Counted from the stretch's first letter, positions 1,634 to 33,827 are shown. The stretch is 64,000 nucleotides of DNA from Caldisericia bacterium (GCA_963674785.1 OY771555.1:144851-208850); one strand, 5' to 3'. Made by a program: numbers and translations. The notes: generated by a model from the letters alone, not told the origin.

Positions 1634-1635
1634 TT

Positions 1636-2118: not shown

Positions 2119-2121
2119 TTG

Positions 2122-11338: not shown

Positions 11339-12850
11339 ATGAAAAATAAAACGATAACAGCCATAGCAATAACAGTATCAGTTATTATTGTTGCAGGAAT
11401 TGGAGCATTTGCACTTATGAGCATCTGGAAGAATTCCTCAATAGATCCACTTGCATTTATACCAGAAGATTGCGGATTCTACGCCGTCTTTGATTCAGGT
11501 TTAAACATGGAGGATGTAAAAAGACCTATCGAATCACTTGGAGACACATACAAAAACGAATTTGAAGACTATTTTGACGAATTCATGGAGACTGACCTTT
11601 CATTTCTAAACCTCAACGGTTTTGTTGTGAAGAACTCCGACAGCATTTTATCACAGGATTTTGTTATTGGTCTTGAAATCACAGATAAAGCTGGTGCAAG
11701 AAAAGGGCTAGAAAATATCTACAATATCTTTGATTTTGAAGATAAACCCGAAATTATTGAAGATGAAAAAGGATTCATAAAAATCGGGGATGATTTTGTG
11801 TGTTTTGTTGAAAAGAACTTCCTGCTAATATCTCAAAGCTCAAGAGCAATAAATGATGTCCTTGATGTAAAATCAGGGGAAGATAAATCCATAATGGAAA
11901 ATGCCGATTGGAAGAAAATCAGCCACGAATTGTCCACTAAATTTTCAATTTTTGTACAAGTCCCCCTGGGTAAAGAACCTCTTGTTGTCGCTGCAACAGA
12001 ACTTTCAGAAAAGACTTCGGAGCATGGATTAGAGATAATACTTATCGAAGGGCGTCAAAGATTGAAGTCATCAATTCCAGATAAAGAAACAAGAGAAATA
12101 ATCGCACTTTTTGATGAAGTTTTCGAAAATAGCCGAGATTTGTCAGGCATTCTGTCGATGCTTCCCGATGCACCAATTGTTGGCGCTGCTTCTATGATTC
12201 CAAATTTCAACCTAGACATTTCAGACTCCAATGATAAGAATGTTTTCTTGGATGGTGATTATGGTTTCTGGGTCGACCCTGATGAATTCAATTCCCCAGC
12301 TATTTTTTGTCAGCTTATGAAGCCAACGGGTGTTTCAACAAGTAAACTTCTTGAATACATTTTCCCAGAGGATGAATTCAAGATTGAAGATAATCTGGGT
12401 GTAAAAGAAATTTATTCTTCCTTCTTTTTTCCAATGTCCCCATTTAATGATGAAGAACTAGAAGAGATTTCATTTGAAACCGAACCATCTTTTTTTGCAT
12501 CAGAAAAGAACGGAACAGCAATTATCTCAACAGAAATTGATGCCCTGGATTTTCAGCCATCCAAAAAGAACATAAAAACTGAGGATGCGGTGGCTTACTG
12601 CATAATCGATTTCAAAACCATGATTCAAAACAGTCTTGATTCAATAAAGGATTCCGAATATCAACCCGCATACGGATTAGATGAATACAAGGAAAGACTA
12701 AAGAAAATCGATCTTAAAGCAGTGATCAGACTCTATGAAAAGGACACAGATATGAGACTTAAACTCTCGTTCTCTGGTGATTTAAAAGAAATAAAATCAA
12801 TATTGATGGATGCTGCTGGCGAGATAACAAAAGAATCAAGTGAACAATAG
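11339..12850 (+). CDS. Membrane-anchored hypothetical protein (tandem paralog 1)
   Basis: 503 aa; N-terminal TM helix then acidic domain. Shares blocks with the next gene (ADWKKISHELSTKFSIF, EHGLEIILIEGRQ, NSRDLSGILSMLPDAPIVGAASMIPNF). Confidence 0.7.
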   Translation: MKNKTITAIAITVSVIIVAGIGAFALMSIWKNSSIDPLAFIPEDCGFYAVFDSGLNMEDVKRPIESLGDTYKNEFEDYFDEFMETDLSFLNLNGFVVKNSDSILSQDFVIGLEITDKAGARKGLENIYNIFDFEDKPEIIEDEKGFIKIGDDFVCFVEKNFLLISQSSRAINDVLDVKSGEDKSIMENADWKKISHELSTKFSIFVQVPLGKEPLVVAATELSEKTSEHGLEIILIEGRQRLKSSIPDKETREIIALFDEVFENSRDLSGILSMLPDAPIVGAASMIPNFNLDISDSNDKNVFLDGDYGFWVDPDEFNSPAIFCQLMKPTGVSTSKLLEYIFPEDEFKIEDNLGVKEIYSSFFFPMSPFNDEELEEISFETEPSFFASEKNGTAIISTEIDALDFQPSKKNIKTEDAVAYCIIDFKTMIQNSLDSIKDSEYQPAYGLDEYKERLKKIDLKAVIRLYEKDTDMRLKLSFSGDLKEIKSILMDAAGEITKESSEQ

Positions 12851-12935
12851 CCTATCCAAAGCATATTAAAAACGATAACTAAATCCTTGTGTCAAAATAA
12901 GAAAGCAGATACTATTTTCGGTGTTTGGAGGAAAC

Positions 12936-14402
12936 ATGAAAAATAAAATTACTGTTGTTTTAATAACCGTTCTTTTGGTTATTTTTATTGGTGGGGCAGT
13001 CTCACTTGGGCTTGTGGCTGATGCAAACGAGAATTCTCCTGGTCAGACAGATTACGCCAGTGAAAATGCTATGTTGTTTGTGCAGTTTGACTTAGAGTAC
13101 AACGCTCAAGATTTGATTGACGAAGTAAAACTTGTAATTCCGATGTTTGAAGATTTGATTGATGAAGAATTTGTTGGATTACTTGATTTTGATTACTCAT
13201 TCATAGACCTAGCGGGTTTTTATGTATTCGAGTCATACAGCGAAATTGACTACTCAATAAACAGCACCTTTGGGTTAAGGCTTTCAGGGGAAGGTGATCC
13301 TGAAAAAGGAATCGAATCAATTCTTGGCTATCTTGAAGAAACTTTTGAATTAGGAATTGAACATACAGACGAAGGCTACATAATCATTGATAACATCTAC
13401 ACAATGTATTTGGCTGAAGACTACATTCTTTTTGCTGAAGATACTCAATCAATTGAGTTTGCTCTTGACATAAAAGAGAACGACAAGCCAACCATCGCTG
13501 ATAGTCCCAATTGGAAAAAAGTTGAAAACGATTTATCTAAAAACTTCTCTTTCCTCATTAACTACCCATCCTTTATGGGCGAAAGCAGCATTCCAATTGC
13601 TGGAACATATATAAATCCAAGCAAAAATGAATATGGAATCGAACTTATTCTGGTTGATGGAAGAGAACAATTCGAAAACATGTTTTCTTTTGATGCTACG
13701 GGAGAGATTGCATCAAGTCTCAACTCTCTTTTTGATCAATCCAGAGACCTGTCAGATACAATATCATATCTTCCTGACACTGGACTTCGTGGGGCAATTG
13801 CTGGAATCCCAAATTTCGATGAATATTTCACTACTGTCGAGTTTCTTGAGGGCAGCAATGGGTATTGGTTAGACCTAGAAGATGAGTATCTTGGTAAAGA
13901 AGGTTTGATGTATGAGGCAACTGACATTGAACCAAAAGAGCTTCTTCTGAAGCTCTATCCTGAGAAAACTTACCACTATGAAGAAACCGAAGATGGGTTT
14001 GAGCTATACAGACTTCCATTCTTTTTTGATCCGTCAGAGGATGAATTTGACATAACCGACAAAACTCCAGATTTGTTTTGTCAAATCGATGAAAGCAAGA
14101 TATACGTCGTCTCAGACGAATCAATGAAACAAGAAACCTGGGAAAAATCAGAATTCAAGGATACTGGTGATTCTGTAGCATTCTTTGAGCTTGACTATGG
14201 AGAATTGCTCGAATCGATGGCTTCATCTGATGATGAAATGGGTTTTGGAATTGATCCATCTCTTTTAGCGGGACTTGTCAAGGAAGCTGACATAAAAGTA
14301 AACGTCAGATTATTTGAATTAAAACCAAATATAAAGCTTGATGTAATTATGAGTGGCGACTTCGAACTGCTTTCTGAGCTTGTTGAGAGTCTATTGCCTT
14401 GA
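12936..14402 (+). CDS. Membrane-anchored hypothetical protein (tandem paralog 2)
   Basis: Paralog of 11339..12850 (SPNWKKVENDLSKNFSFL, EYGIELILVDGREQ, QSRDLSDTISYLPDTGLRGAIAGIPNF). Start moved to ATG at 12936, preceded by GGAGG. Confidence 0.7.
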   Translation: MKNKITVVLITVLLVIFIGGAVSLGLVADANENSPGQTDYASENAMLFVQFDLEYNAQDLIDEVKLVIPMFEDLIDEEFVGLLDFDYSFIDLAGFYVFESYSEIDYSINSTFGLRLSGEGDPEKGIESILGYLEETFELGIEHTDEGYIIIDNIYTMYLAEDYILFAEDTQSIEFALDIKENDKPTIADSPNWKKVENDLSKNFSFLINYPSFMGESSIPIAGTYINPSKNEYGIELILVDGREQFENMFSFDATGEIASSLNSLFDQSRDLSDTISYLPDTGLRGAIAGIPNFDEYFTTVEFLEGSNGYWLDLEDEYLGKEGLMYEATDIEPKELLLKLYPEKTYHYEETEDGFELYRLPFFFDPSEDEFDITDKTPDLFCQIDESKIYVVSDESMKQETWEKSEFKDTGDSVAFFELDYGELLESMASSDDEMGFGIDPSLLAGLVKEADIKVNVRLFELKPNIKLDVIMSGDFELLSELVESLLP

Positions 14403-14440
14403 TATTTTAATATATTTCATCTATACTTAGGCAAGCGCAG

Positions 14441-16684
14441 ATGAGAAGTCAAAGAGCGAGAATAGCATTCGTATTGTTTTTGGCAATCTCGCTTGCCTTT
14501 GCGCCCTACTCTGCTTCCGCAAGATCAATCTCTTGGAATATGTTTGGTTTCAATGCAAGCCATACATTTGCAACAGATGAGCAGATTTCCACAGACTTAT
14601 CAGTCGACTGGATGTATGATACTGGAGGAGGAGTTGTTGCAACTGCAACCCCGTGTTACGAATCTGGGAGATTTTACGTCCCTCAAGCATCGGGCATGAT
14701 CAGTTGTTACAATGAGGAAACGGGAAAGAGATTGTGGAGATCAAAGCTTTCTTCTGCCCCAATCGTTTCGAAACCAAAACCCGTTGGTGGATACCTAGTA
14801 ACCACTTCTTATGATGGAAAACTCTACTCACTTTTTGCAAAAGATGGCAGCACCTACCGAAGCCGTGATATTGGATCACACACCTCAACCTCTCCTGTTG
14901 TGAGTAATGGGTATATCTTCACTGTCACAGATGAAGGTGAACTTGCCAAATGGACAATAAATGGTGTTTTCAAGGTTCAACAAAAAAATATAGAATCGCA
15001 AGTAAAATTAGATACTGACCCTGTCGTAACGAGAAAAGGGATAGCTATTGCAACAAACGATGACAAGATAAAATGTTTCGACATAAGATGGGGTAAAAAT
15101 CTTGAACTTAAATGGGAACGCTCAATTGCCATTCCATCTGGATCGAACTCCATGACCGAGACTGCCGATGGAATTTTGACAGTTGATTCTGATGGGATAC
15201 TTCATTATCTAAACTGGGACAATGGTAAAGATATCTGGGCTCTTCCTCTTGGTGAAGAGGTTCTATCAGGGATCATAACTGACTCTGGGAATGCTTATCT
15301 TGCAACAATGAGTGGTAATGTTCACTCAATATCAATTTCAGGTGGACGTTCTGATTGGATGAGAAGCCTCAAAGAAGAGGTTGTAAGCTCAAATCTTTCC
15401 ATCTCTGGTGGCAAGCTTTATGTCGGCAGCAAAAGACCTGCGAGACATTTGCACTGTTTAACATTGACGAGTAGCTCACTTTGGAACGAATGGTTCGAAA
15501 TGCCGTTTGGATGTAATATCTCTGCGGGGCAAAACGGCGTGCTTGTTATCCCAACAAGTGGTCAGGGTCAATATTTATCTCTATCGACATCAGATACCAT
15601 CTGGAAGTGTGATGTTGGAGGGCTTTCAGAAAGTGCACCAGTAGTCGACGGCAACCAAGTATTTTTCACTCTAACGGATGGTTCAGTTAGATCGATCAAC
15701 TCAGACAATGGAAGACTTATTTGGAGAAAAGATTTTGAAACACAAATAAATTCATCTCCTGCAATTGGAAACGGCAAGATAGTGCTTGCCCCAAGCAACA
15801 AACCTGTTGTGTGTCTGGACTCAAAAAATGGCAGGGAATTATGGCAAACAAATCTTTACAAGTATGTTGGCTCTGCACCAACCATCTATGGTAACACTGT
15901 ATTTGTTGGGGCATGGGATGGACTTGTGTACTCGTATGACCTTCAAACAGGCAACCCTGAAAGACAATACAAAACCTACGGACAGATAACTTCCTCCCCG
16001 ACGATCACAAGAGACGGTGTATTTGTTGGATCACACGACAGATTCTTCTACAAATTTCACAGAATTAACGGGAACAATGAGTGGCTTTATCCAACAGGAA
16101 AAGTTAAGAGAACCTGTGCTGAATCAAACAGGAACGGTTTTGTAATCTCTGAGAACACTATAACCTCACTTGACATGAAAAAGAGTCACGTCAGCTTGAA
16201 TTGGAGCCGCAAATTTGACTCTTTGGTCATCGCTGAACCCGCCTATAGCCAGACTCACCTTTTTGTAATGACTGCTGATGGCTATGTTACATGTATTGAC
16301 CAGAACGAGGATAATGGGGAAACCTATGTGTGGAAAAAGAAGCTTTCTCTGGATGGTTCTTACAAGAGCATTATTTTATGCCGAGACAGATTATGCATTT
16401 TGACCGGAAAATCCATTTATATTTTGTCCGCCGAGACAGGTAAGGAATTGTGGAATTATAAGCGAGGAATCAATATTACAGGGATGGTTCTCTCAAATGG
16501 CAAACTCATAATCTCAACACAGTCTGGTTCAATTGTCTGCATGAGTCCAACTCAAAATGTAAACGTACAAAAACCAGACAAGCTTCCATCCGCAGAGTAC
16601 ACACTCGACCCAAAATCCAAAGAGGATGTAATTAATGAAGCAATTCAAAACAAAACAACACCTGACCAAATCATGGTTTGGTAG
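14441..16684 (+). CDS. Secreted PQQ-type beta-propeller repeat protein
   Basis: 747 aa; signal peptide MRSQRARIAFVLFLAISLAFAPYSASA; repeated propeller-blade motifs (ETGKRLW, KNGRELW, AETGKELW). Confidence 0.75.
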   Translation: MRSQRARIAFVLFLAISLAFAPYSASARSISWNMFGFNASHTFATDEQISTDLSVDWMYDTGGGVVATATPCYESGRFYVPQASGMISCYNEETGKRLWRSKLSSAPIVSKPKPVGGYLVTTSYDGKLYSLFAKDGSTYRSRDIGSHTSTSPVVSNGYIFTVTDEGELAKWTINGVFKVQQKNIESQVKLDTDPVVTRKGIAIATNDDKIKCFDIRWGKNLELKWERSIAIPSGSNSMTETADGILTVDSDGILHYLNWDNGKDIWALPLGEEVLSGIITDSGNAYLATMSGNVHSISISGGRSDWMRSLKEEVVSSNLSISGGKLYVGSKRPARHLHCLTLTSSSLWNEWFEMPFGCNISAGQNGVLVIPTSGQGQYLSLSTSDTIWKCDVGGLSESAPVVDGNQVFFTLTDGSVRSINSDNGRLIWRKDFETQINSSPAIGNGKIVLAPSNKPVVCLDSKNGRELWQTNLYKYVGSAPTIYGNTVFVGAWDGLVYSYDLQTGNPERQYKTYGQITSSPTITRDGVFVGSHDRFFYKFHRINGNNEWLYPTGKVKRTCAESNRNGFVISENTITSLDMKKSHVSLNWSRKFDSLVIAEPAYSQTHLFVMTADGYVTCIDQNEDNGETYVWKKKLSLDGSYKSIILCRDRLCILTGKSIYILSAETGKELWNYKRGINITGMVLSNGKLIISTQSGSIVCMSPTQNVNVQKPDKLPSAEYTLDPKSKEDVINEAIQNKTTPDQIMVW

Positions 16685-18080
16685 TCTTTTACTCGTAATT
16701 TTTTTTAGCACAAATGTTTTTGCCGGAGGGGAACTTATCCGAATTGGGCAAGCATGGTGTCAATGTGCTTTTCAGCCAACTGAAGTTTGTCTGATGGATA
16801 ATTGGGTTTTGTATGTAGACAAGGAACTTCATCAAATATACACATTCACACACAGCGGGACTTTTAATGGCAATCTTTCTCGCGATGGAAACTGTGTAGG
16901 TCCTGAGGATTTCACACCATTTAGACTTGCATATATCGACAATCTTGTTTTTGCAACCTGTCACCACGATAACGCAGTAAAAGCACTCAGAAATGGTAAA
17001 GTAACCGAGAAAATCACAACTGCAGAGCTCGGTTTCCCAAATGCCAAACCAACCGCAATAAATGCTGGTGATTACTTCATATATGTTGCACTTGATAATG
17101 ATAAACTCGTTGCCATGTATTATGATTTTGAGGTTGAAACAATTATCGATACTAATTGTGTTGCAATGGATTTTTTGGATGAAAACCTGATCGTCATAAC
17201 TGAAAATGGGTTTTTAAAAACATACGATGTTGATTTGAATTTCATTTCTGAGAAAGACCTTTCGGGTCATTACGCTGGTCAGATTCAAAATCCAACAGAT
17301 ATGGTTATGGATGATGAGGGTTTGATATGGATTACCCATGATGGTGGATTAACAGTTCTAAACAATGATGGCACTTTTGGGGTATGGGGTAACAAATATT
17401 CTGATATGGAAATCGAACGAACAATAATCAGTGGTGATCCGATTGTTGGGTCAAAAGGGATATTCCCAGCAAATGCTGTAGACACAAGTGGTGGCTACTT
17501 TTATCTCACCCAAAATGGAAAATACGGTTTAACAGTCTCAAAAGACCTTATAAATCAGGTTCCAAGCTCCCAGGTTCATTTTATGGCAATTGCACTAACA
17601 GAAGATGAATACTGGAAACAAGCGATAAATATTTGGAAACTTCAACAGTATCTTTATCCACAAGTCTTAGTTGCAGTATTCCAAGATAGCGGACTTGAAA
17701 AAATTGGAATAAACGGAAATGGCGTATACCTAAATGGTGAATATATAACCGATGATTTCTCAGAAATCGAAAATGTTGAGATTTTCGGAGATGAAATTCT
17801 TGAATGTTCTGCTGAAACATCAAACATCAATATCAACGTAACTGAAGGAAAGCTTGTGGCTGATGTGAGCAAATCTGATGAACCTTTTGAAACCTCTCTT
17901 GCTCTCCTTGAGATACATGGTGAAAAGACACCGCTCATCGTTGATGATATAAGTCTAATCCATGCAAACAGATTTCAAAAAATTGAATGTGATATAAACA
18001 TTCCAGAGTACCCATCTGTTTTGTTTGCTGTGATACTAAACAAGCAAGGAAAGTCACTTGGAGCAAGGATTATCAGATAA
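16635..18080 (+). CDS. Secreted hypothetical protein (possible beta-propeller)
   Basis: 481 aa with signal-peptide-like N-terminus; overlaps the upstream gene by 50 nt. Its last ~18 codons are duplicated at 18475-18539. Confidence 0.6.
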   Translation: MKQFKTKQHLTKSWFGSLLLVIFFSTNVFAGGELIRIGQAWCQCAFQPTEVCLMDNWVLYVDKELHQIYTFTHSGTFNGNLSRDGNCVGPEDFTPFRLAYIDNLVFATCHHDNAVKALRNGKVTEKITTAELGFPNAKPTAINAGDYFIYVALDNDKLVAMYYDFEVETIIDTNCVAMDFLDENLIVITENGFLKTYDVDLNFISEKDLSGHYAGQIQNPTDMVMDDEGLIWITHDGGLTVLNNDGTFGVWGNKYSDMEIERTIISGDPIVGSKGIFPANAVDTSGGYFYLTQNGKYGLTVSKDLINQVPSSQVHFMAIALTEDEYWKQAINIWKLQQYLYPQVLVAVFQDSGLEKIGINGNGVYLNGEYITDDFSEIENVEIFGDEILECSAETSNININVTEGKLVADVSKSDEPFETSLALLEIHGEKTPLIVDDISLIHANRFQKIECDINIPEYPSVLFAVILNKQGKSLGARIIR

Positions 18081-18152: not shown

Positions 18153-18464
18153 TTACTTGCCACTCTCATATTCCATCTCCATTGAGACTCTTTCAAGTAC
18201 CCGACCTTTGGTGATTGGTATGAGTTCATTTCTTGAACAGTTCTTCACAATCTTTGTGAATACTTTATCTCCTCTCTTTATGATACCGAAGACAGGTATC
18301 TTTGAGTCTGCTCTCCTACCCCTCTTTCCTCTTATTCTCTTTCCTCCAAAATAGCTTTCATCAAGTTCTACTTCACCTTCTACTGGTGATTCATCTGCTA
18401 GTGTAAGAATCCTTCTTCTGAATTTGTTGAACAACTTCCCTACTGTTACACGAGAAATGTTTGA
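18153..18464 (-). pseudogene. IS1595-family (ISXO2-like) transposase fragment
   Basis: Contains ...VELDESYFGGKRIRGKRGRRADSKIPVFGIIKRGDKVFTKIVKNC..., the region around the first catalytic Asp of the IS1595 DDE domain; lacks the Zn-ribbon N-terminus and the rest of the DDE domain. The first 18 codons of the track ORF are antisense to repeat copy B. Confidence 0.65.
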
Positions 18465-18474
18465 AAAATCTGCA

Positions 18475-18539
18475 GTTTGCTGTGATTCAAAACAAGCAAG
18501 GAAAGTCACATAGAACAAGGATTATCAGATAAATTAATT
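18475..18539 (+). repeat. Direct repeat copy B (~65 bp)
   Basis: gtttgctgtgattcaaaacaagcaaggaaagtcacatagaacaaggattatcagataaattaatt; would encode ...FAVIQNKQGKSHRTRIIR*, a degenerate copy of the C-terminus of 16635..18080. Confidence 0.8.
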
Positions 18540-18869: not shown

Positions 18870-19289
18870 ATGGTAACAGTAGAATTCCAAGGGGAATACG
18901 ATAAGGAAAAGAATCTGTCGATATTCAAATATGTCGATATACCACAATCAAAAGAAGACGTAGAGTTTGTCGTTGAAAAAGCCACACCACTTTGGAAAGG
19001 CGACGGTATTCATAAAAGCTGGAACATCACAGACATAACAGCACTCGGACAAGCCTCACCAAGTCTTGTCATTTACTACAACAAGCTCTGTAAACCAATC
19101 TTGAAAAAACACGTACACAATTATGTCGTGGTAGCAGGAACATTGCTTGAAAAAGTTGCAACAAGTCTGTTTAACACATTTATGGGTGAAAAACACCCTG
19201 TTGCATCATCAATGGAAGAAGCGCTTGAAATAATTGAAAGACTCCAAAAAAGAGACGGAGTTTTTCCATCAAAAGCAGAAAATCTGTAG
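18870..19289 (+). CDS. Hypothetical protein (tandem paralog A)
   Basis: 139 aa; about 60% identical to the next ORF (WKGDGIHKSWNITDITALGQASPSLVIYYNKL...LEKVATSLFNTFM). Family not recognised. Confidence 0.65.
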   Translation: MVTVEFQGEYDKEKNLSIFKYVDIPQSKEDVEFVVEKATPLWKGDGIHKSWNITDITALGQASPSLVIYYNKLCKPILKKHVHNYVVVAGTLLEKVATSLFNTFMGEKHPVASSMEEALEIIERLQKRDGVFPSKAENL

Positions 19290-19304: not shown

Positions 19305-19721
19305 ATGAGAGTTGTTGAATTTGAAGGAAACTATGACAACGAAAAGAACATTTCATTTGTGAAATTCATAAATACACCTAAATCAAAGGAAGACATAGAG
19401 TATTTTGTAGACAATACTCTTCCACTTTGGAGAGGTGACGGGATTCACAAATGCTGGAATATAACTGATTTAACTGGTCTTGGGAAGGCATCCCCAGGTC
19501 TTGTGATCTACTACAACAAGTTGGTAAAGCCACACATCAAAAAGCATCTTGAGAACTATGTTGTTATTGCCGGATCAACACTTGAGAAAGTTGCAACAAG
19601 TTTGTTTAACACCTTCATGAGGGAAAGGCATCCCATTGTCTCAAGTATTGATGAGGCAATGGTGATAATCAAAAAATGGCAAGAGGAAAAGGGTATTTTC
19701 TTCTCAAAGATTGGCGAATAG
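19305..19721 (+). CDS. Hypothetical protein (tandem paralog B)
   Basis: 138 aa paralog of 18870..19289. Confidence 0.65.
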   Translation: MRVVEFEGNYDNEKNISFVKFINTPKSKEDIEYFVDNTLPLWRGDGIHKCWNITDLTGLGKASPGLVIYYNKLVKPHIKKHLENYVVIAGSTLEKVATSLFNTFMRERHPIVSSIDEAMVIIKKWQEEKGIFFSKIGE

Positions 19722-19723
19722 AA

Positions 19724-20173
19724 TCAGAGAGTAATCAGGGAGTTCTCGTAGTCTTTTACTCGAAGCTTTGTACTTCTTTTTGATTTGCCAGTCCAGATTA
19801 TGTGTCCTTCCTCTTCGAGAAGTTCTTTCTGATAGTCAGGAGCTCCGGGGTATTTTTCTGAAAGTAATCCGTCCTTTTTAACGCATCGCCACCATGGAAA
19901 AACCTCTTCACCGATTACCTTATTCTCCTCAGACGCTCCCGCTACCATATTCATAAAAATCCCTGTGCACATGGGGCATGTCCAATCCGCACCAAATTTC
20001 TTTGCAAGCTGATCTCGTATTTGATTCGCAGTAAGAAGTTCACCTTTTTTTGGAATTCTCATCACTTCTGCAACATCCATGGGAGTAGGCACCAGAAGAA
20101 GACCTTTTTCAGTTTCAGAAAAACTTCTTTCGCATTCCTTATAGAGTTGTTCTCTTTTGGTTTTTCTGGCCAT
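19724..20173 (-). CDS. MGMT-family alkyltransferase-like (ATL) protein
   Basis: 149 aa; PWWRCV in place of the MGMT active-site PCHRV, i.e. Trp where the acceptor Cys sits, as in ATL proteins. Confidence 0.55.
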   Translation of the reverse strand: MARKTKREQLYKECERSFSETEKGLLLVPTPMDVAEVMRIPKKGELLTANQIRDQLAKKFGADWTCPMCTGIFMNMVAGASEENKVIGEEVFPWWRCVKKDGLLSEKYPGAPDYQKELLEEEGHIIWTGKSKRSTKLRVKDYENSLITL

Positions 20174-20419
20174 CTAATTTCGATCTTTCCAGGCCGGAAG
20201 TTTAGCAAGATTCTTGATCGCCATCTCTCTTGCAGCGGCTTCGTCAAAGCCTTGTGACTGAACTAAAAAACCAGTCATACCAGCAACACATTCTTCATAA
20301 CTTTTCATTGAGCCATCTTCTCTTGCACAGTAGAGGCAATAGTCCTTTGACTCATCTCCAAGAGCAAAATCCTCCTTCTTCTCCATCGGCATTCCGCAAC
20401 AAATACAAATTTTACTCAT
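20174..20419 (-). CDS. Zinc-ribbon domain protein
   Basis: 81 aa; CICCGMPM...CLYCA Cys pairs. Its TAG stop directly abuts the ATG of the ATL-like gene. Confidence 0.6.
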   Translation of the reverse strand: MSKICICCGMPMEKKEDFALGDESKDYCLYCAREDGSMKSYEECVAGMTGFLVQSQGFDEAAAREMAIKNLAKLPAWKDRN

Positions 20420-21017
20420 CTTTCCAGTTCCTTTCTGAAATCAGATTCATATAGTTATCAACAAGTTCATATCCTCTTTTTTTAAGTAATGACCCTTCTA
20501 CACAATAAAATCTTTTATTCTGAAGATAGTGATGAATAAGCCCAATCCAGGTTGTAAAAAGAAAGCTCATGGGCATTCTTTTTATTAAACCTTTTTCCAT
20601 TTCGGTTTTTGCGGCACTATACATTGAGTGAGAAATCGCGGAATGAATAGAAACAACACTTACCTGTACATCCTCGGGCAAGGTGTTTAGTTCAGAAATC
20701 AACCTTGCATAAAGGTCTTCATACTCAGATAAAGTTGCAAGATGTGTTTTTAGTACAGTTCTTATACCCATATCCGCATCAATATCCGCCCTCATTTTCC
20801 TTGTGACACGCATACCAAAATCATGCATTACGGTAACAAGTAATTCATCGCGAGTTGGAAAATGCAAAAAAACCGTTCCGTGCGAAACGCCTGCAGTATT
20901 TGCAATATCGATCGTTCTAGCTCCACTTATCCCATCAAGCTCAAAGTGTTTCATTGCGGAATCAATAAGCTTCCTATGAGTATCTTCACGTTTTTCTTTT
21001 CTAGATTTTGCGATCAT
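20412..21017 (-). CDS. TetR/AcrR family transcriptional regulator
   Basis: HTH ARTIDIANTAGVSHGTVFLHFPTRDEL. The ORF-track N-terminus (WARQDSNLRPLPCEGNALPTEPP) is antisense translation of tRNA-Val, so start moved to MIAKSRKEK (ATG 21015-21017). Confidence 0.8.
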   Translation of the reverse strand: MIAKSRKEKREDTHRKLIDSAMKHFELDGISGARTIDIANTAGVSHGTVFLHFPTRDELLVTVMHDFGMRVTRKMRADIDADMGIRTVLKTHLATLSEYEDLYARLISELNTLPEDVQVSVVSIHSAISHSMYSAAKTEMEKGLIKRMPMSFLFTTWIGLIHHYLQNKRFYCVEGSLLKKRGYELVDNYMNLISERNWKDE

Positions 21018-21133
21018 ATCTTTTAAACTGAGTTCAGACTCACTGAGTTTTGACTCATAATATGCCGAAACATCAACATTGTCAAGTTCAACTGTTGACT
21101 TGTGAATACGTAACAATAATATATTAAACATGT

Positions 21134-21209
21134 GGGCGGGTGGCTCAGTTGGTAGAGCATTTCCTTCACACGGAAGAGGTCGCAGGTTCGAGTCCTGTCT
21201 CGCCCACCA
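21134..21209 (+). tRNA. tRNA-Val (anticodon CAC), CCA encoded
   Basis: GGGCGGGTGGCTCAGTTGGTAGAGCATTTCCTTCACACGGAAGAGGTCGCAGGTTCGAGTCCTGTCTCGCCCACCA folds as cloverleaf: 7-bp acceptor, D arm GCTC/GAGC, anticodon loop TTCACAC, T loop TTCGAGT. Confidence 0.9.
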
Positions 21210-21243
21210 ATAAGTGCTCAAAAGAGATTAAAGGGGTGCAGTT

Positions 21244-23262
21244 TTGTTGCTTTACACGGTACCAATAGTCGGCTTACTTGGACTTATCACAGCACTAATA
21301 CTTGGTGTTGGAATTTCAAGAAGTGATCCGGGAATCGGAAAAATGGTAAGCATTGCCGCCGCAATTAGAGCCGGGGCATTCGCATTCCTCCTGAAAGAAT
21401 ACCAATATATGCTTATCGCATCAATCCCATTTGGAATTGCAATTGCGTGGATTATTGGCCTACAGGCACTGATTGCGTTTGTTTGTGGGGCTCTCTTTTC
21501 AATCACAGCGGGTTTCATTGGAATGAACATTGCAACGCTTGCAAACAACAGAACAGCACAAGCAGCAAGTAAACACGGTGAAGGAAAGGCTCTTGAGGTT
21601 GCATACTCAGGTGGTGCGGTCATGGGACTTGTTGTTTCATCACTCGGAATAATCGGTGTTTCACTTTTCTTCCTCTTCTTCAAAGATGTCACTGATGCAA
21701 ATACCCTTCGAGGAATTCTTGTCGGATTCTCAGTTGGTGCATCATTTGTTGCCCTTTTTGCAAGAGTCGGTGGAGGAATCTTTACAAAAGCGGCCGACGT
21801 TGGCGCAGACCTTGTTGGTAAGGTTGAAGCAGGAATACCTGAGGACGACCCAAGAAACCCAGCCGTTATAGCAGATAACGTCGGTGATAATGTTGGTGAT
21901 GTTGCCGGAATGGGTGCAGACCTTTATGAATCATACGTAGGAGCGATCGTATCGGCGCTTGTCCTTGCAGCAGTCGCAGGAGACTCAGTAGAAAAGATCA
22001 AGTTGATTCTCTTCATAGTCGCGGGTGGACTTCTTTCATCAATCGTTGGTATCCTAATTGTCAAGCTTGGCGCAAGAGCCGGAAAGGTCAAACCTTCAGT
22101 TGGACTCCAGCTTGGAACTGGCGTTGCAGGACTTCTTTCACTTGGAATCCAACTCTACCTTTCGATTTCATTGCTCGGTAGCATCAGATATTTCTGGGCA
22201 TCCGCAGGCGGACTTGCCGCAGGGCTTCTCATTGGGTTTGTAACTACATACTACACATCAGCAAAACCAGTGAAATATATTGCTGAACAGAGCAAAGGTG
22301 GCCCAGCTACCAACATCATCGCAGGGTTTGGTGTTGGAATGGAATCAGCGGTTGTTCCAATTATTATCATTGCGATAGCTATCATTCTTGGGTACACGGT
22401 TGTTAATGGAGTCTTCGGAATCGCCCTTGCGGGGGTTGGAATGCTCTCAACCTTAGCCGCGACACTAACCGTTGATGCTTATGGTCCAATTGCCGATAAC
22501 GCAGGCGGAATTGCACAGATGAGTGGACTCGACCCAAAGGTCAGGGAGATAACTGATAAACTGGATTCACTCGGGAACACAACTGCTGCCATGGGGAAAG
22601 GATTTGCAATTGGCTCTGCGACTTTAACAGCACTTGCATTCTTTGTTTCATACACTCATGCAGTTGGACTAAACACACTCAATTTCCTTGAGCCAGGAGT
22701 GCTTGCTGGTGGACTTATTGGTGTTGCTATGCCAGCACTATTTTCATCACTCACAATAAGATCGGTTGGATCGACAGCAAGCATGGTTGTTAACGAAGTT
22801 AGAAAACAATTCAAAGAAAAAGTTGGTCTTCTCGCTGGAAAAGCAGAACCTGATTACAAAAAAACTGTTAGTATTGCTACTCAGGGCGCATTAAACCAAA
22901 TGATTCTGCCATCAATCCTCATGATTGCAACACCTTTTGTGGTTTTTTATCTTTTTGAATTATTCAAAAAAGGGACAGGTATCCAAGCTCTCGGTGGAAT
23001 GCTTGTTGGAGCAACACTAACGGGAGTCCTACTTGCGATCTTTATGGCTAACGCTGGCGGCGCTTGGGATAATGCAAAAAAATATATCGAAGAAGGATTC
23101 TTCGGTGGAAAAGGTTCAAGCGTTCATAAAGCAACTGTTGTTGGGGATACCGTTGGTGATCCACTAAAGGACACAACTGGCCCATCAATAAACATACTCA
23201 TAAAACTTATGTCAGTAATTTCACTGCTATTTATACCATTTTTGTTAGAATTAATGAAATAA
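21244..23262 (+). CDS. hppA: Membrane-bound K+-dependent pyrophosphate-energised ion pump (H+ or Na+)
   Basis: 672 aa; hallmark GGIFTKAADVGADLVGKVEAGIPEDDPRNPAVIADNVGDNVGDVAGMGADL; GNTTAA (Ala rather than Lys) indicates the K+-dependent subclass. Confidence 0.9.
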   Translation: MLLYTVPIVGLLGLITALILGVGISRSDPGIGKMVSIAAAIRAGAFAFLLKEYQYMLIASIPFGIAIAWIIGLQALIAFVCGALFSITAGFIGMNIATLANNRTAQAASKHGEGKALEVAYSGGAVMGLVVSSLGIIGVSLFFLFFKDVTDANTLRGILVGFSVGASFVALFARVGGGIFTKAADVGADLVGKVEAGIPEDDPRNPAVIADNVGDNVGDVAGMGADLYESYVGAIVSALVLAAVAGDSVEKIKLILFIVAGGLLSSIVGILIVKLGARAGKVKPSVGLQLGTGVAGLLSLGIQLYLSISLLGSIRYFWASAGGLAAGLLIGFVTTYYTSAKPVKYIAEQSKGGPATNIIAGFGVGMESAVVPIIIIAIAIILGYTVVNGVFGIALAGVGMLSTLAATLTVDAYGPIADNAGGIAQMSGLDPKVREITDKLDSLGNTTAAMGKGFAIGSATLTALAFFVSYTHAVGLNTLNFLEPGVLAGGLIGVAMPALFSSLTIRSVGSTASMVVNEVRKQFKEKVGLLAGKAEPDYKKTVSIATQGALNQMILPSILMIATPFVVFYLFELFKKGTGIQALGGMLVGATLTGVLLAIFMANAGGAWDNAKKYIEEGFFGGKGSSVHKATVVGDTVGDPLKDTTGPSINILIKLMSVISLLFIPFLLELMK

Positions 23263-23272
23263 AGGAGGCGCT

Positions 23273-24274
23273 ATGAGAAGAATAGGTGTCGTTACATCTG
23301 GTGCAGACTGTCCGGGTCTTAATGCAGCGATAAGAGCTGTTGCGAGAAAAGGCTTTGACCTTGGTTATGAAGTAATCGGCGTTCGAAATGGCTGGAAAGG
23401 TCTTATTGAAGATGACGTATATGTGATGCATAAAAGACATGTCTCTGGGATTTTGTATCTTGGCGGTTCTATTCTTGGCTCAGGTCGCTTTGATCCCTTT
23501 AGTTCAGAGAAAGAATTTGCATCATTCCAGGAGAATTTTAAAAAATATTCCCTAACATCATTGATAGTAATCGGAGGATTCACATCGCTTCGAATTGCAT
23601 CAAGGCTCAATGAGGCTGGTTTTGCAACAGTTGGAATACCCGCAACAATTGATAATGATGTATCATGTACAGAGGCCTGCATTGGCTTCGACACAGCAAC
23701 AAACTTCGTTACCCACTCACTCGATAGACTTCATGCAACTGCATCTTCACATCATAGAGTAATGGTTGTAGAAGTTATGGGTGGAGGCTCAGGATGGATA
23801 GCTCTTATGGGTGGACTTGCAGGTGGAGCAGATTACGTCATCACACCAGAAGAACACACATCGTTTGATAAAGTTGTCAAACACATTGAACACAGAAGAT
23901 CATCAGGCAAAAACTTCTCGATCATCGTCATCACAGACACAGCACAAGTTGATGGAATGCCTTTTGAAATTGGTGATTCACCTCAGACTGGCGTTGGTGC
24001 AAAGCTTGCCAATGAAATAGAAAAAAGAGCCGGAATCGATTCAAGATACACCGTTCTTGGACACCTGCAACGAGGTGGAACACCAACGGTTGTTGACCGT
24101 GCGCTTGCAACAAGATTTGGATACGAGGCAATCGAATTACTCAAACGTGGTGAGGTTGGTAAAATGACATCCCTTAAGGCTGGACTTGTTGTTCCTGCCG
24201 ATATGGATGCTGCAACACGTGAACGCAGAAGACCTGACCCAAAAATGTTCGAGTATGCGAAACTCTTCTATTGA
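23273..24274 (+). CDS. 6-phosphofructokinase family protein with divergent active-site motifs
   Basis: 333 aa; PFK-A family (GADCPGLNAAIR, GIPATIDND, TVLGHLQRGG) but GGFTS replaces GGDGS and EVMGGGSG replaces the MGR box. Confidence 0.8.
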   Translation: MRRIGVVTSGADCPGLNAAIRAVARKGFDLGYEVIGVRNGWKGLIEDDVYVMHKRHVSGILYLGGSILGSGRFDPFSSEKEFASFQENFKKYSLTSLIVIGGFTSLRIASRLNEAGFATVGIPATIDNDVSCTEACIGFDTATNFVTHSLDRLHATASSHHRVMVVEVMGGGSGWIALMGGLAGGADYVITPEEHTSFDKVVKHIEHRRSSGKNFSIIVITDTAQVDGMPFEIGDSPQTGVGAKLANEIEKRAGIDSRYTVLGHLQRGGTPTVVDRALATRFGYEAIELLKRGEVGKMTSLKAGLVVPADMDAATRERRRPDPKMFEYAKLFY

Positions 24275-24301: not shown

Positions 24302-27300
24302 TTGTTTAATTCAAGATTCAATATAATCAGAAAACTCGGGGAAGGAGGAATGGGTGAGGTGTATCTTGCCCACGATACCAGAACTGGGTCTGATGTTGCT
24401 CTCAAGATCGCAAACCTTGAGAGTTCAACTGCTAGAGAGAGATTCTTACGTGAAATTGAGATTCTTTCAAGTATTTCACATGAAAACATTGTTGACTACA
24501 TAGACAATGGGATCAATGGAAATACTCTCTGGTATGAAATGGAATATATTCCCGGACTCCAGTTAATCCACTGGTTTAAGGGACAAAGCAATATTGATTT
24601 TAAAAGTCTTGCAAAAATCTTTTCTAAGATTGCATCAGCCTTATCTACTCTTCATACAAATGGGATTATTCACCGCGACATAAAACCCGATAATATTTTG
24701 GTTTGTAATGGGGAACCAATAATCGTTGATTTTGGTGTGGCACATCTAATCGATAAGGGAGATCGAGCAAAGCTTACGAGAGCAGGTTCTGTTGTAGGTA
24801 CAATCCAGTATATGTCTCCAGAACAAGTAACGGGAAGCCATATCGATGGGCGCTCAGACCTTCACTCACTTGGTGTGATCATGTATGAATTATTAACTGG
24901 AGAACACCCATACGAAGCAACCACTCTGCCGGGAATGATCTCAAGAATCCTTCAAGAAAGACCAATAAAACCATCAAGTCTAAACCCAGATATACCCGAC
25001 AACCTTGAAATGATAATACTCAAGCTTCTGGAGAAAAACCCTGACTTGAGGTACAAATCAGCCGACGAACTCGAAACAGCTCTTCTGAGGTATTGTAGTG
25101 GAGGGGTTCTGACTGAGGCTGTCAATCTTTCACCACTAAAGACTAATGCTTCAAGAGATATTCCATTCGTTGGAAGAGATAAAGAACTAAATCAGCTCGA
25201 ACTCTTACTTCACTCAGCAATCTCAGGAAGAGGACAGGCTATTGAAATCTTTGGTGAAGATGGTTTAGGAAAATCAAGATTGATTGAGGAATTCAGAGCA
25301 CAGGCTCTTGGACACCTTTCAAAATTCCTATTGTGTTCACCACAAATAGAGGGAAGCTCAAGACTAGCAATATCATCAATTCTCGACCAACTAGCTGATT
25401 ATGAAATCAATTTTGACAACAGGATTATAAAAAAACATCCACACATGATTAGAAGTCTTTCTGCAAAATTTGCAGACTCTGTCGGAATAGAAGAAAAGCC
25501 GCCTAACATCGGAGATTCAAAAGATATCCCAAACGTTGTTGCTGAAATAATAATCAATGCCTTCCCAGAAATCCCATCTATTTATGTTTTTGAAGATGGA
25601 ATTGATAGTCTTACATTTGAAATCGCAACAGAGATTTCAAAAAAAATTGCAGATAGAAAAATAGTTGTGTGTTTTGCGACAGAAAATGAGTTAAGCAAAA
25701 CGATAGCAGAAAAAAAAGGCTTATCAGGGCAAGCAAATTTTTCAAAACTAATTCTTAAACCACTTCAAAAAAATGAAATTGACGCGCTTTCAAGAGCTAT
25801 CCTTGGCAGAGATTTATCCGAACCAGAAATGGATAAGATCTTTGCCAGTTCAAACGGAATGCCAAATGTTGCAATCCAGCTTCTCTCAAATATGCGTGAG
25901 GGTAGTAGGACAGTCTCACTCACATCTCTACCTGAAAATGTAAACAGCATTTATCTTGAAAAAATCTCAAAACTTGGAGGGGAGACAAAACAACTTATTG
26001 AAGTGATGTCTCTTTTGAAGAAACCAATTCCAATCGGTCTATTGAGTCCAATTTCATCTCTTGAAAAAGTGGATTTTGATCTTGCGTTTGAAACTCTTGA
26101 TTCAATTGGATTCATTAAAGAAAAAAACATAGGCAGAGAACTTGTTGTAGAACTTGCAACAGCTGATTTGAAAAAGATAGTCTGTGAAGAACTGAAAAAA
26201 GAAAAAGCAAAAGAATACCATAATCGAATCGCTTCAACTCTTGAAATCTACTACTCAGACACAAAAGATCAGGACATAAAAAAACGTATAGCAGAACACT
26301 ATGTTGAAGCTGAAGAATTTGATAAATCATCAGAGCTATATTTATCAATATTCAGTTATTACAACTCACATGGGAATTCAAAAAATGCAATTGATGCGAT
26401 TAATGAACTTGAAAGAAACTTTGAGAAAATAACCAAAAAATCTCTGATTATAAATTCTGTGTACTATTTCCTTATCAATTTTCCACTAACAAACCAAATG
26501 GAATTGTTTGAAAAATACAAGTTAATTGGTTTGCAACTATTAGAGAAAAATGACCTACCTGGTTACACAGTTTTTTCGTATTATTCTGCAATTGGTGGTG
26601 CATACTTAAGGCAAAGACTTCTACTTGAATCGAGAAAACACATTGATAAAGCAAGAACTCTATACGACCAGGTCGAAGACAGTCGAAAACTGGATTTAAA
26701 TATCCACGAAATTAATCAGGCAATTTTTGAAACAAACATTGAAACGCTCCGTGAGCTACTTGAAGAGCGAAAACGACTGCTTGAAAACACAAATGCTTCG
26801 GAGATTGACTGGATACCTTATTACAATAGTGAAGCAATATATTTCTCTGAAATTGGAAGCCATGCAAACGCCGTAGAAAACTTTAAAAAATCGCTTTCGA
26901 TTGCCAAAAGACTCAACCATAAAAGGCAAGAACTTAGGGCGCTCACAAATCTTGGAACTGCATGCGCTCACGCTGATCTTAATTTCAAAGCGATCGATTA
27001 TTATAAACAGGCTCTAAAACTTGCAAAAGATCTTACTCTTGAAAACATTCATGCCCTAATCTTAAATGACATGGCAAACCTTTATCTAAATGAAGGTAAA
27101 ACCGTAGAATACCGAAATATATTACTTGAATACAAAAGACTGTATGAGGATAAGGAAATCACAAAGGCTTTGATTGATTGGACATATAATTATTCACACC
27201 TCAAGGTTTTAGAAAATGATTTTGATGAAGCAGAAAACATCTTATCAAAAATGAAAAACAGGGTAATTGAGTCAAACAGAAGTTTCTGGCTTCGCGAAGT

Positions 27301-27919
27301 CCTATATTATGAGGCACTGTGCACATTTGATAAAAACAATTTTAGAAGAGCAAAACTTCTGTTTTTACAACTCCTTGACCTTTTCAAGATTGATAAATTA
27401 GAGGACACCTTAACTCAGCTTTTCATATCAAATATTCATCTTGCCCACATATATGTCATCGAAGGCGAACTTGATGAAGCCGAAGAACACTACCAGAAAG
27501 CTTATTCTCTCTGCAGGAGTTACAAACAAGATATTCTTGAAAATAACCTCTTTTTTGCTGAAGCCCATATTGAGTTTGCAAAATCCATAAAAAAAGGCAG
27601 CTTTGGATTCAAAGAGTTTTTTGATGAAAGCTCATGGAGAACCTCATACAACATTTTGATGCAGTTATCCAAAAAGTGTGAACACAAAAAATATACTATG
27701 TCAATTCTTCCAACAAGTGCTACAGAGCTTTTCGCAAAACTCGTTATCCTCAGAATAAAAAACGACAAGAAACTCCGGACAATTGAAAGAAGACAGATTT
27801 TTGAGCAGGCTGTAAATCAAATCGAACTATTATTGAAAAAATATTCAGAACACAATTTTTCTTACAAACGTGATGAAATCATTGAGCTTAATAACGAGCT
27901 TATAATGCTTCTCGAATAG
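24302..27919 (+). CDS. Ser/Thr protein kinase fused to STAND-type NTPase and TPR repeats
   Basis: 1205 aa; kinase motifs GEGGMGEVY, HRDIKPDNIL, DFGVA; P-loop GEDGLGKSRL; C-terminal TPR-like helical repeats. Confidence 0.85.
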   Translation: MFNSRFNIIRKLGEGGMGEVYLAHDTRTGSDVALKIANLESSTARERFLREIEILSSISHENIVDYIDNGINGNTLWYEMEYIPGLQLIHWFKGQSNIDFKSLAKIFSKIASALSTLHTNGIIHRDIKPDNILVCNGEPIIVDFGVAHLIDKGDRAKLTRAGSVVGTIQYMSPEQVTGSHIDGRSDLHSLGVIMYELLTGEHPYEATTLPGMISRILQERPIKPSSLNPDIPDNLEMIILKLLEKNPDLRYKSADELETALLRYCSGGVLTEAVNLSPLKTNASRDIPFVGRDKELNQLELLLHSAISGRGQAIEIFGEDGLGKSRLIEEFRAQALGHLSKFLLCSPQIEGSSRLAISSILDQLADYEINFDNRIIKKHPHMIRSLSAKFADSVGIEEKPPNIGDSKDIPNVVAEIIINAFPEIPSIYVFEDGIDSLTFEIATEISKKIADRKIVVCFATENELSKTIAEKKGLSGQANFSKLILKPLQKNEIDALSRAILGRDLSEPEMDKIFASSNGMPNVAIQLLSNMREGSRTVSLTSLPENVNSIYLEKISKLGGETKQLIEVMSLLKKPIPIGLLSPISSLEKVDFDLAFETLDSIGFIKEKNIGRELVVELATADLKKIVCEELKKEKAKEYHNRIASTLEIYYSDTKDQDIKKRIAEHYVEAEEFDKSSELYLSIFSYYNSHGNSKNAIDAINELERNFEKITKKSLIINSVYYFLINFPLTNQMELFEKYKLIGLQLLEKNDLPGYTVFSYYSAIGGAYLRQRLLLESRKHIDKARTLYDQVEDSRKLDLNIHEINQAIFETNIETLRELLEERKRLLENTNASEIDWIPYYNSEAIYFSEIGSHANAVENFKKSLSIAKRLNHKRQELRALTNLGTACAHADLNFKAIDYYKQALKLAKDLTLENIHALILNDMANLYLNEGKTVEYRNILLEYKRLYEDKEITKALIDWTYNYSHLKVLENDFDEAENILSKMKNRVIESNRSFWLREVLYYEALCTFDKNNFRRAKLLFLQLLDLFKIDKLEDTLTQLFISNIHLAHIYVIEGELDEAEEHYQKAYSLCRSYKQDILENNLFFAEAHIEFAKSIKKGSFGFKEFFDESSWRTSYNILMQLSKKCEHKKYTMSILPTSATELFAKLVILRIKNDKKLRTIERRQIFEQAVNQIELLLKKYSEHNFSYKRDEIIELNNELIMLLE

Positions 27920-33812: not shown

Positions 33813-33827
33813 AATTGTTGTCGTTTG

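Follow-up and report, generated by a model that had tools for sequence, protein, structure and literature searches.

A phosphofructokinase-fold protein without the GGDG aspartate is paired with a membrane pyrophosphatase gene in Caldisericota and Thermotogota

A 64,000-nucleotide stretch of DNA from a Caldisericia bacterium (GCA_963674785.1 OY771555.1:144851-208850; hereafter the window) carries a gene for a protein of the phosphofructokinase (PFK) A fold immediately downstream of a gene for a membrane-bound, ion-pumping pyrophosphatase (M-PPase). Analysis of this protein and its relatives defined an undescribed PFK-A-fold subfamily in Caldisericota and Thermotogota whose genes are paired with that of a membrane PPase of the K+-dependent type. 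The PFK fold, both gene families and the loss of catalysis in a eukaryotic PFK domain were already known. New is a free-standing bacterial PFK-like subfamily that lacks the aspartate of the GGDG motif and is locked to a membrane PPase gene, for which no description was found in the literature searched.

The open reading frame (ORF) at 23273-24274 encodes the motifs GADCPGLNAAIR, VIGGFTSLR, PATIDND, EVMGGGSGW and GHLQRGG. Residues were numbered by alignment to the PFKs of B. stearothermophilus and E. coli, and the motifs landed on the numbers used in the structural literature. In the window protein Gly11 is changed to Ala (SGGD to SGAD), Asp103 to Phe, Gly104 to Thr, Gly/Lys124 to Ala, Arg171 to Gly and Asp172 to Gly. 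Arg72, Thr125, Asp127, Asp129, Arg162, Met169 and Gly170 are kept, as are Asp222 (Glu in E. coli), Arg243, His249 and Arg252. In the two reference enzymes we take Asp103 to be a Mg2+ ligand, Gly11 and the GGDGS loop to bind the nucleotide phosphates, Arg72 and Arg171 to contact the transferred phosphate, Asp127 to be the catalytic base, and Arg162, Arg243, His249 and Arg252 to bind the 6-phosphate of fructose 6-phosphate (F6P). Taken together with these roles, the residue states indicate that the F6P half of the site is intact and that the donor/Mg2+ half has been replaced. Where ATP-PFKs have the donor motifs GGDG (Asp103, Gly104) and SGGD (Gly11) and the MGR box (Arg171), the window protein has GGFTS, SGAD and MGG; TIDND with Asp127 and the four F6P ligands are all present. 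ATP- and pyrophosphate (PPi)-dependent enzymes are distinguished by GGDG versus GGDD and by Gly versus Lys in PKTIDxD (PMC12203962). The PPi signature is lacking as well, the corresponding segments reading GGFT and PATIDND.

A preliminary description of this DNA, made from the sequence alone, had pointed out GGFTS and EVMGGGSG in the PFK homologue, and both are present (codons gga gga ttc aca tcg for GGFTS and atg ggt gga ggc tca gga for MGGGSG). It had listed TIDND, LQRGG and GADCPG as kept motifs. The first two are, but the canonical form of the third is GGD, so that Gly11 is in fact altered to Ala. GGDG[ST] had been ascribed to PPi-PFKs also; these carry GGDD and PKTIDxD (PMC12203962). Several nucleotide changes had been thought necessary for each substitution, which is correct for Asp to Phe and Gly/Asp to Thr (at least two each) but not for Arg171 to Gly, where just one suffices. 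Realignment in search of a conserved Asp at the catalytic position placed none at 103, and no orthologue with GGFTS was reported as an ordinary active PFK in the literature searched.

The protein matched the Pfam family PF00365 over its full length (349.7 bits against a cut-off of 30.9, E 1.5e-104; residues 3-290, profile positions 1-277 of 277). The subfamily model NF002872 was the only NCBIfam PFK model passed (368.8 against 253), and this match is the origin of the database name 'ATP-dependent 6-phosphofructokinase'. Scores fell below the cut-offs of the ATP-PFK equivalog TIGR02482 (304.9 against 371.35) and of TIGR02483 (PFK_mixed; 357 against 430.55), the latter giving 428.2 with the canonical relative P0011. 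All PPi-PFK models failed: NF041103 (119.1 against 550), NF010675 (109.9 against 273), TIGR02477 (79.3 against 587.95), NF005482 (79.3 against 446) and NF005121 (41.7 against 395). Other PPase-linked members of the clade described below gave the same outcome. A fold search with the AF2 model (pLDDT 79) returned bacterial PFKs (ATP-PFKs) as best Foldseek matches, with TM ~0.73, and did not tell the hypotheses apart.

Closest in sequence are short PPi-type PFKs of group III / PFK_mixed (GGDD, PKT[IM]DND, MGR; ~342 aa), which occur in bacteria and archaea; the nearest canonical sequences, from Chloroflexota, Omnitrophota and Thermoplasmatota, are 46-50% identical at ~350 bits. They share with the window protein the length class, a C terminus of the form LAK[LV]F[FY] and the F6P residues. 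Unlike the clade, they keep Gly11, Arg72, Asp103, Asp104, Lys124, Arg171 and a D-x-F-G-H-x-R-L loop. Among the best PDB sequence matches are the C-terminal halves of mammalian PFKs, and the profile search described below also aligned best with this half in many PFKs of two domains.

The altered motifs are conserved in Caldisericia. The nine closest clusters (74-99% identity) have MGGG[SA]GW and, apart from a single fragment that reads GGFAS, GGFTS. In a second subclade of Caldisericia, at 49-50% identity, the motifs are MGGGTGW and either GGFSY or GGYSY, and Arg72 is replaced by Val or Ile; a third (47%) has G[GA]FKY, SIDNN and MGGGAGW. In an alignment of 16 sequences Met169, Gly170, Gly171, Gly172, Gly174 and Trp175 are invariant and Gly102 and Phe103 nearly so; Arg or Lys at position 107 is conserved in the Caldisericia members. 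Because this (near) invariance extends down to 47% identity, the motif changes are not noise, and the exclusion of read errors in the preliminary description holds. For the same genome pairs the PFK-like protein is more similar than the adjacent PPase (95 versus 85%, 88 versus 76% and 74 versus 70% identity). The new residues are under strong purifying selection. All named members are annotated as (ATP-dependent) 6-phosphofructokinase, and all are from Caldisericia except one record labelled Dojkabacteria.

A profile of the 16 Caldisericia sequences was searched against 1.84 billion representative proteins, the matches were split into domains, and 240 PFK domains were placed in a tree with and without the signature columns, neighbor joining being the only method applied. 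The 13 Caldisericia representatives form a clade (68-70% bootstrap). Together with the single-domain proteins P0190, P0232 and P0238 they form a larger clade, supported by 96% bootstrap; masking of all signature columns lowers this to 78%. Two of the three joining representatives stand for Thermotogota (Marinitoga/Petrotoga and Pseudothermotoga) and the third for a metagenome lineage. P0190 is from Marinitoga litoralis, and relatives were found in Marinitoga, Petrotoga, Tepiditoga, Oceanotoga and Pseudothermotoga. The successive motifs are GGD / GHTG / ATIDND / GGD in the Marinitoga/Petrotoga group, with Asp at position 171, and GND / GRLG / ATIDND / MGK in the Pseudothermotoga group (MGR in 3 sequences). 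None of the 53 clade sequences has Asp103, the position being Phe or Tyr in Caldisericia, His in Marinitoga/Petrotoga and Arg in Pseudothermotoga. Position 124 is Ala in 51 of the 53, position 171 is Gly, Asp or Lys (Arg in 3), and position 72 varies among Arg, Lys, Val, Ile, Thr and Leu. Thr125, Asp127, Asp129, Arg162, Arg243 and Arg252 are kept almost everywhere. Lys54 and Thr95 are clade-wide novelties, and the D-x-F-G-H-x-R-L loop conserved in the nearest canonical PFKs is missing. The window protein shares the defining features of the clade: the tree grouping, absence of Asp103, Ala124 and a gene directly 3' of the H_PPase gene. The same holds for the other members examined.

Two further degenerate PFK-like proteins, P0186 and P0278, were considered as members and rejected, as they are not PPase-linked and lie outside the supported clade. 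P0186 (L031:6001-6978, on the 1,588,679-bp chromosome CP046447.1) has GAD / VGDRPS / QTIDND / MGGD and is not beside a PPase gene. For strain 3DAC, the apparent source of CP046447.1, a complete glycolysis pathway is stated (PMC10356935).

The complete genome of Pseudothermotoga caldifontis (AP014509) encodes a 419-aa PFK 5.3 kb upstream of the PPase/PFK-like pair on the opposite strand. It scores 649.5 with NF041103 against the cut-off of 550, a model that we take to correspond to the characterized PPi-PFK of Thermotoga maritima, and its counterpart in a Pseudothermotoga-like contig has GGDD, PKTIDND and MGR. This Thermotogales PPi-PFK belongs to the same superfamily as the PPase-linked paralogue with which it coexists, but it is of the long type with canonical motifs and is neither adjacent to nor co-directional with the PPase gene. 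Pseudothermotoga thus has the PPase-linked protein as an additional paralogue besides its genuine PPi-PFK, so that, at least in Thermotogota, it is not the sole PFK. A protein search with a fragment of the Pseudothermotoga PPi-PFK as query gave no match named Caldisericia.

The PFK-like gene lies directly 3' of, and co-directional with, an H_PPase gene in every clade member with readable surroundings. In the window the two are separated by 10 nucleotides, as first described, the PPase frame ending at 23262 and the PFK-like ATG starting at 23273, with AGGAGG as a strong ribosome-binding site in the gap. Elsewhere the spacers are 6-58 nucleotides and most contain a Shine-Dalgarno sequence, except in L017, where an antisense AhpC gene is inserted and the gap is 546 nucleotides. 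Flanking genes otherwise vary between lineages. In the second and third Caldisericia subclades a gene for a transketolase C-terminal subunit (Transket_pyr + Transketolase_C) comes next, a sugar-phosphate setting without counterpart in the window, and in Pseudothermotoga serine dehydratase genes follow the pair. As control, we used 80 loci from a metagenome sample that encode relatives; the motifs are canonical in 77 of these. Not one of the 48 canonical PFK loci with at least 1.5 kb of upstream sequence had a PPase gene within 4 kb or anywhere else in the locus; the short PPi-type PFKs, unlike the clade, lie in ordinary contexts, as P0033 does next to a fructose-bisphosphate (FBP) aldolase gene. 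The GGF-type loci of the sample had a PPase gene in 3 of 3 cases. No PPase linkage was seen at the P0059 locus, nor for P0186 and P0278. Fisher's test on ~12 clusters against 51 controls gave p = 3.7e-13; as the clade lineages share ancestry, this value measures association and not independent events. In both phyla the two genes have stayed together although their whole surroundings differ.

The upstream gene matches Pfam H_PPase (PF03030) over its full length (814.7 bits, E 8.8e-245), passes NF001960 (841.6 against 546) and TIGR01104 (737.5 against 651.9), and has PDB matches 4a01, 8b37 and 4av3. Its product contains GNTTAA and DLYES, and 10 of 10 partner pumps have GNTTAA and DL[FY]ES. We take GNTTAA to be the K+-dependent signature and the Glu of DL[FY]ES to occupy the position typical of Na+-pumping M-PPases. 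The motifs thus suggest that the window pump is of the K+-dependent type with the Glu typical of Na+-PPases, the ion specificity being inferred from them. It is a full-length member of the family that includes the Na+-PPase of Thermotoga maritima (PDB 4av3). To our knowledge, M-PPases are described as self-sufficient homodimers without accessory or regulatory protein and are treated as stand-alone pumps; we know of no accessory protein for the K+-dependent enzymes, whereas the pumps of this clade have a conserved downstream partner gene. In the papers searched, neither this clade, nor a PPase-PFK linkage, nor a dedicated conserved downstream partner gene of an M-PPase was reported, and a 2025 review of the PFK superfamily mentions no inactive bacterial paralogues and no PPase linkage.

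The altered site resembles that of the C-terminal half of eukaryotic PFK, which typically reads GAP / GFEA / ATISNN / xGG / Gln252. Both share Ala11, Phe103, Ala124 and Gly171. The eukaryotic half has Ser127, Asn129 and Gln252, whereas the window protein keeps Asp127, Asp129 and Arg252; the former is fused to a catalytic half and binds fructose 2,6-bisphosphate, whereas the latter is a free-standing single domain. Nothing is left of the ATP pocket in the eukaryotic half, whose F6P pocket has turned into the effector site for fructose 2,6-bisphosphate (PMC12203962). The two proteins follow one logic, with the donor pocket gone and that for the sugar phosphate preserved. A sister relation to the eukaryotic C-terminal halves was considered and rejected, the deep nodes of the 240-domain tree having 0-4% bootstrap with and without signature columns. 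Because the tree gives no support for common origin, the likeness apparently reflects convergence. Closer to the window protein than the eukaryotic halves are the C-terminal domains of some fused PFKs, such as P0172_d2 (GAD / GISS / ATIDND / MGG), P0265_d2 and P0236_d2 (xSIDND / MGG), each of which stands beside an intact N-terminal catalytic domain. P0172, P0236, P0265, P0185 and P0174 are two-domain fused PFKs of ~720-930 aa with a canonical N-terminal domain; their C-terminal domains have GAD or GQD, lack Asp103 and keep TIDND, SIDND or TIDNN, with MGG in all except P0185 and P0174. By their motifs, these five seem to be intermediate forms, lying between the PFK of bacteria and the regulatory half of the eukaryotic enzyme. 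The reverse arrangement was seen in P0170 (730 aa), with a degenerate N-terminal domain (GGRN, MGQ, HRGG) and a canonical PPi-type C-terminal domain (GGDD, PKTMDND, MGR).

For the function of the PPase-linked protein we favor, tentatively and at somewhat less than even odds, a kinase-dead or at least non-canonical PFK-fold protein that would bind F6P and couple PPase pumping to hexose-phosphate status. The PFK-like gene would be co-transcribed with the PPase gene and probably translationally coupled to it. Its product would no longer perform canonical Mg-ATP or Mg-PPi phosphoryl transfer and may serve as a hexose-phosphate-binding partner of the PPi pump, the ligand being most likely F6P. PPi hydrolysis with ion pumping, or the reverse reaction, could in this way be tuned to the state of glycolysis or gluconeogenesis; at high F6P, for example, PPi might be spared for PPi-dependent glycolysis. 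The eukaryotic C-terminal half, where a dead catalytic site became a sugar-phosphate sensor, would be a parallel. As the negative charges at 127 and 129 are kept and Arg171 is lost, a monophosphate such as F6P would be favored as ligand and a bisphosphate is less likely. The more specific version, in which a free-standing pseudo-phosphofructokinase binds F6P and physically regulates the upstream PPase, we regard as rather unlikely. Several points weigh against a coupling role. The catalytic base Asp127 and Asp129, lost in the eukaryotic regulatory half, are kept, and catalysis could continue. The tight conservation of the replaced residues within lineages (the MGGGxGW loop and Arg/Lys107) fits a rebuilt functional site equally well or better. 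Gene adjacency is functional linkage, not physical interaction or regulation. Finally, if Caldisericia have no other PFK but run glycolysis or gluconeogenesis by the FBP route, the PFK-like protein would have to be the enzyme for this step.

An alternative is that the protein is still a F6P 1-phosphotransferase with a rebuilt donor site, most plausibly using PPi reversibly in tandem with the PPase. Gluconeogenic conversion of FBP and Pi to F6P and PPi could, for example, supply PPi that then drives ion pumping, with the reverse in glycolysis. This reading is a close rival, although we do not consider it probable. Besides the invariance of TIDND with Asp127 and Asp129 in most of the clade and the lineage-wise conservation of MGGGxGW and R/K107, it is consistent with the PPi type of the nearest canonical relatives (GGDD, PKT[IM]DND), the operon linkage with a PPi-handling pump and the transketolase subunit gene next to the pair in subclades 2 and 3, and the Arg171 to Asp change in the Marinitoga group could be a relocated metal ligand. 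Asp103, Arg171 and the PPi signature residues Asp104 and Lys124 (PMC12203962) are all gone, however; the replacements differ by lineage (F/Y/H/R at 103, G/D/K at 171, R/K/V/I/T/L at 72), which is unexpected for one conserved chemistry; a genuine PPi-PFK is already nearby in Pseudothermotoga; and every PPi-PFK and ATP-PFK equivalog model failed. The same failure of the ATP-PFK equivalog, together with replacement of Gly and Asp of GGDG and of Gly11, loss of Arg171 and a distinct conserved genomic context without counterpart at canonical PFKs, makes it very unlikely that the protein is an ordinary ATP-dependent 6-phosphofructokinase that tolerates its motif changes, in spite of the NF002872 match (368.8 above 253), the names given to its homologues in the sources, and an overall fold that is matched best by the structures of bacterial ATP-PFKs.

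The protein might instead lack catalysis and regulate a canonical PFK encoded elsewhere, with which it would form hetero-oligomers; the alpha subunit of plant PPi-PFK and the eukaryotic regulatory half would be models. The same set of substitutions is seen in C-terminal domains that are fused to a catalytic PFK domain in intact form. A canonical PFK does coexist in Pseudothermotoga, and Arg162 and Arg243, which we take to reach across the subunit interface in bacterial PFK (E. coli and B. stearothermophilus structures), are retained. We nevertheless find this improbable. The constant neighbor is the PPase gene and never a canonical PFK gene, no canonical PFK is encoded in the 64-kb window, and the Pseudothermotoga PFK is a 419-aa long-type protein of a different subfamily encoded on the opposite strand, which makes hetero-oligomers less likely. 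Decay into a pseudogene, or an artefact of sequencing or assembly, would account for unusual motifs and nothing beyond, and is close to inconceivable: the ORF is intact and full-length with a strong ribosome-binding site, identical motifs recur in many independent assemblies from two phyla, and conservation exceeds that of the neighboring pump, data by which this explanation is refuted. The 'altered specificity or non-catalytic' protein of the preliminary description fits all findings: the failed models, the absence of Asp103, the kept F6P residues and the coexisting PPi-PFK. What that wording overlooked was the pairing with the PPase.

The coordinates of the gene block and of the loci in which the pairing was observed are collected in Table 1. 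The G+C content of the window is ~39-40%, and the closest relatives in public databases are Caldisericia/Caldisericales genomes assembled from metagenomes, with 88-95% identity for the PFK-like protein. No terminator-like site was found between the tRNA-Val, PPase and PFK-like genes. The PFK profile run against all six frames of the 64-kb window matched no second PFK, only the ORF at 23273-24274, and there was no aldolase, FBPase or other glycolytic gene among the 26 window ORFs run through Pfam.

Table 1. Gene block of the window and loci with a PPase-linked PFK-like gene
Feature	Location	Strand	Remarks
TetR-family regulator gene	20412..21017	-	~201 aa; Pfam TetR_N
Divergent promoter-like sites, TetR gene/tRNA-Val interval	21057..21122	.	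consensus matches
tRNA-Val, anticodon CAC	21134..21209	+	ARAGORN; 34 nt 5' of PPase ORF
M-PPase, 672 aa	21244..23262	+	Pfam H_PPase
10-nt spacer with Shine-Dalgarno taaAGGAGGcgctATG	23263..23272	+	between PPase and PFK-like genes
PFK-A-fold protein, 333 aa, remodelled donor/Mg2+ site	23273..24274	+	ORF, Pfam PFK
Ser/Thr protein kinase, AAA_16 + TPR regions, 1205 aa	24302..27919	+	Pfam; 27 nt 3' of PFK-like gene
PPase-linked: window and close relatives	window, L001, L003
PPase-linked: Caldisericia P0089 cluster	L012-L014
PPase-linked: Caldisericia P0115	L017
PPase-linked: Caldisericia P0018 cluster	L018
PPase-linked: Caldisericia P0008 cluster	L021-L023
PPase-linked: Marinitoga litoralis	L024
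PPase-linked: Pseudothermotoga-like contig	L028
PPase-linked: third (metagenome) lineage	L030
PPase-linked: P. caldifontis complete genome AP014509	L035, L036
PPase-linked: metagenome contigs	L037, L038, L074
Transketolase C-terminal subunit genes	L017:11022-11972, L018:9017-9973, L019:2554-3510, L020:1129-2085

Upstream of the pair, the divergent TetR regulator named in the preliminary description was recovered as a minus-strand gene with a Pfam TetR_N match (36.7 bits against a cut-off of 24, E 3.5e-09); its product reached no equivalog model. The ORF of 269 aa listed for it (20412-21221, TTG start at 21221) runs through the tRNA-Val gene; translation more probably starts from the ATG at 21017. 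The regulator was considered as key partner of the PFK-like protein and rejected, being missing from more distant loci and diverging fast. It is confined to close relatives and absent upstream of the pair in L012, L017, L018, L021, L024, L028 and L030, and it is 43% identical to its counterpart at L003:3149-3742, where the PFK-like protein is 88% identical. What is conserved in the two phyla is thus the membrane PPase gene as partner, not the TetR regulator. Promoter-like sites were found on the minus strand (TTGACA-17-TATTAT, 11/12, at 21085..21057) and on the plus strand (TTGACT-16-TAATAT at 21095..21122). They are no more than matches to the consensus, and their number in the region is no higher than in shuffled sequences. 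The tRNA-Val(CAC) gene, also correctly placed in the block by the preliminary description, adjoins the PPase gene in either orientation in the Caldisericia loci L001-L003, L017, L018, L021 and L022, together with tRNA-Thr(CGT) in L017 and L018.

Downstream, the Ser/Thr kinase gene at 24302-27919 is a neighbor and not shown to be part of the PPase/PFK-like module. ORFs of ~1,200 aa, matched by length alone, occupy the same position in L001 and L003; a kinase of the window type was not found there in the other Caldisericia subclades examined. Large Ser/Thr kinase genes do flank the pair in the Caldisericia subclades examined, but their side and domain make-up vary. In L012, L017 and L018 a nearby kinase has two kinase domains and Cu_amine_oxidN1, its gene lying upstream in L017 and L018.

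Other genes of the window include two small adjacent minus-strand ORFs 3' of the TetR gene (19724-20419), one encoding a putative zinc-ribbon protein (81 aa, PF12674) and the other a protein of 149 aa whose match to the MGMT DNA-binding domain is weak and below threshold. Tandem paralogous plus-strand ORFs at 18870-19289 and 19305-19721 encode proteins of 139 and 138 aa that are 63% identical, the former without Pfam match, and a short minus-strand ORF at 18153-18518 with an IS1595/ISXO2-like transposase domain is probably a fragment. Large ORFs of 481-609 aa without Pfam match lie at 11339-18080 (plus strand) and 31983-34661 (minus strand) and adjoin a PQQ-like beta-propeller protein. Genes for AC39/d-like and I/a-like subunits of a V-type ATPase are present at 211-4122 on the minus strand, so that the region encodes, in addition to the PPase, an ion pump of another kind.

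Since annotation pipelines name these proteins ATP-dependent 6-phosphofructokinase, pathway tools credit Caldisericota and some Thermotogota with a complete glycolysis. Should the protein turn out not to be a kinase, such reconstructions would be wrong at the committed step. The conservation of the partner gene across two phyla points to unrecognized control, or substrate coupling, in PPi-based energy conservation. The clade shows, in a single-domain bacterial protein, the same active-site changes that made the eukaryotic regulatory half, and it offers a tractable system for a catalytic site becoming a sensor or for a kinase working without the GGDG aspartate, with cultured carriers in Pseudothermotoga caldifontis and Marinitoga species. 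Should the protein prove to be a pseudo-PFK that regulates the pump, no accessory or regulatory subunit of an ion-pumping PPase would have been known before it, and it would be an independently evolved bacterial counterpart of the sensor half of eukaryotic PFK. In Caldisericota and Thermotogota the pumping of ions at the expense of PPi would then be linked directly to the level of hexose phosphates.

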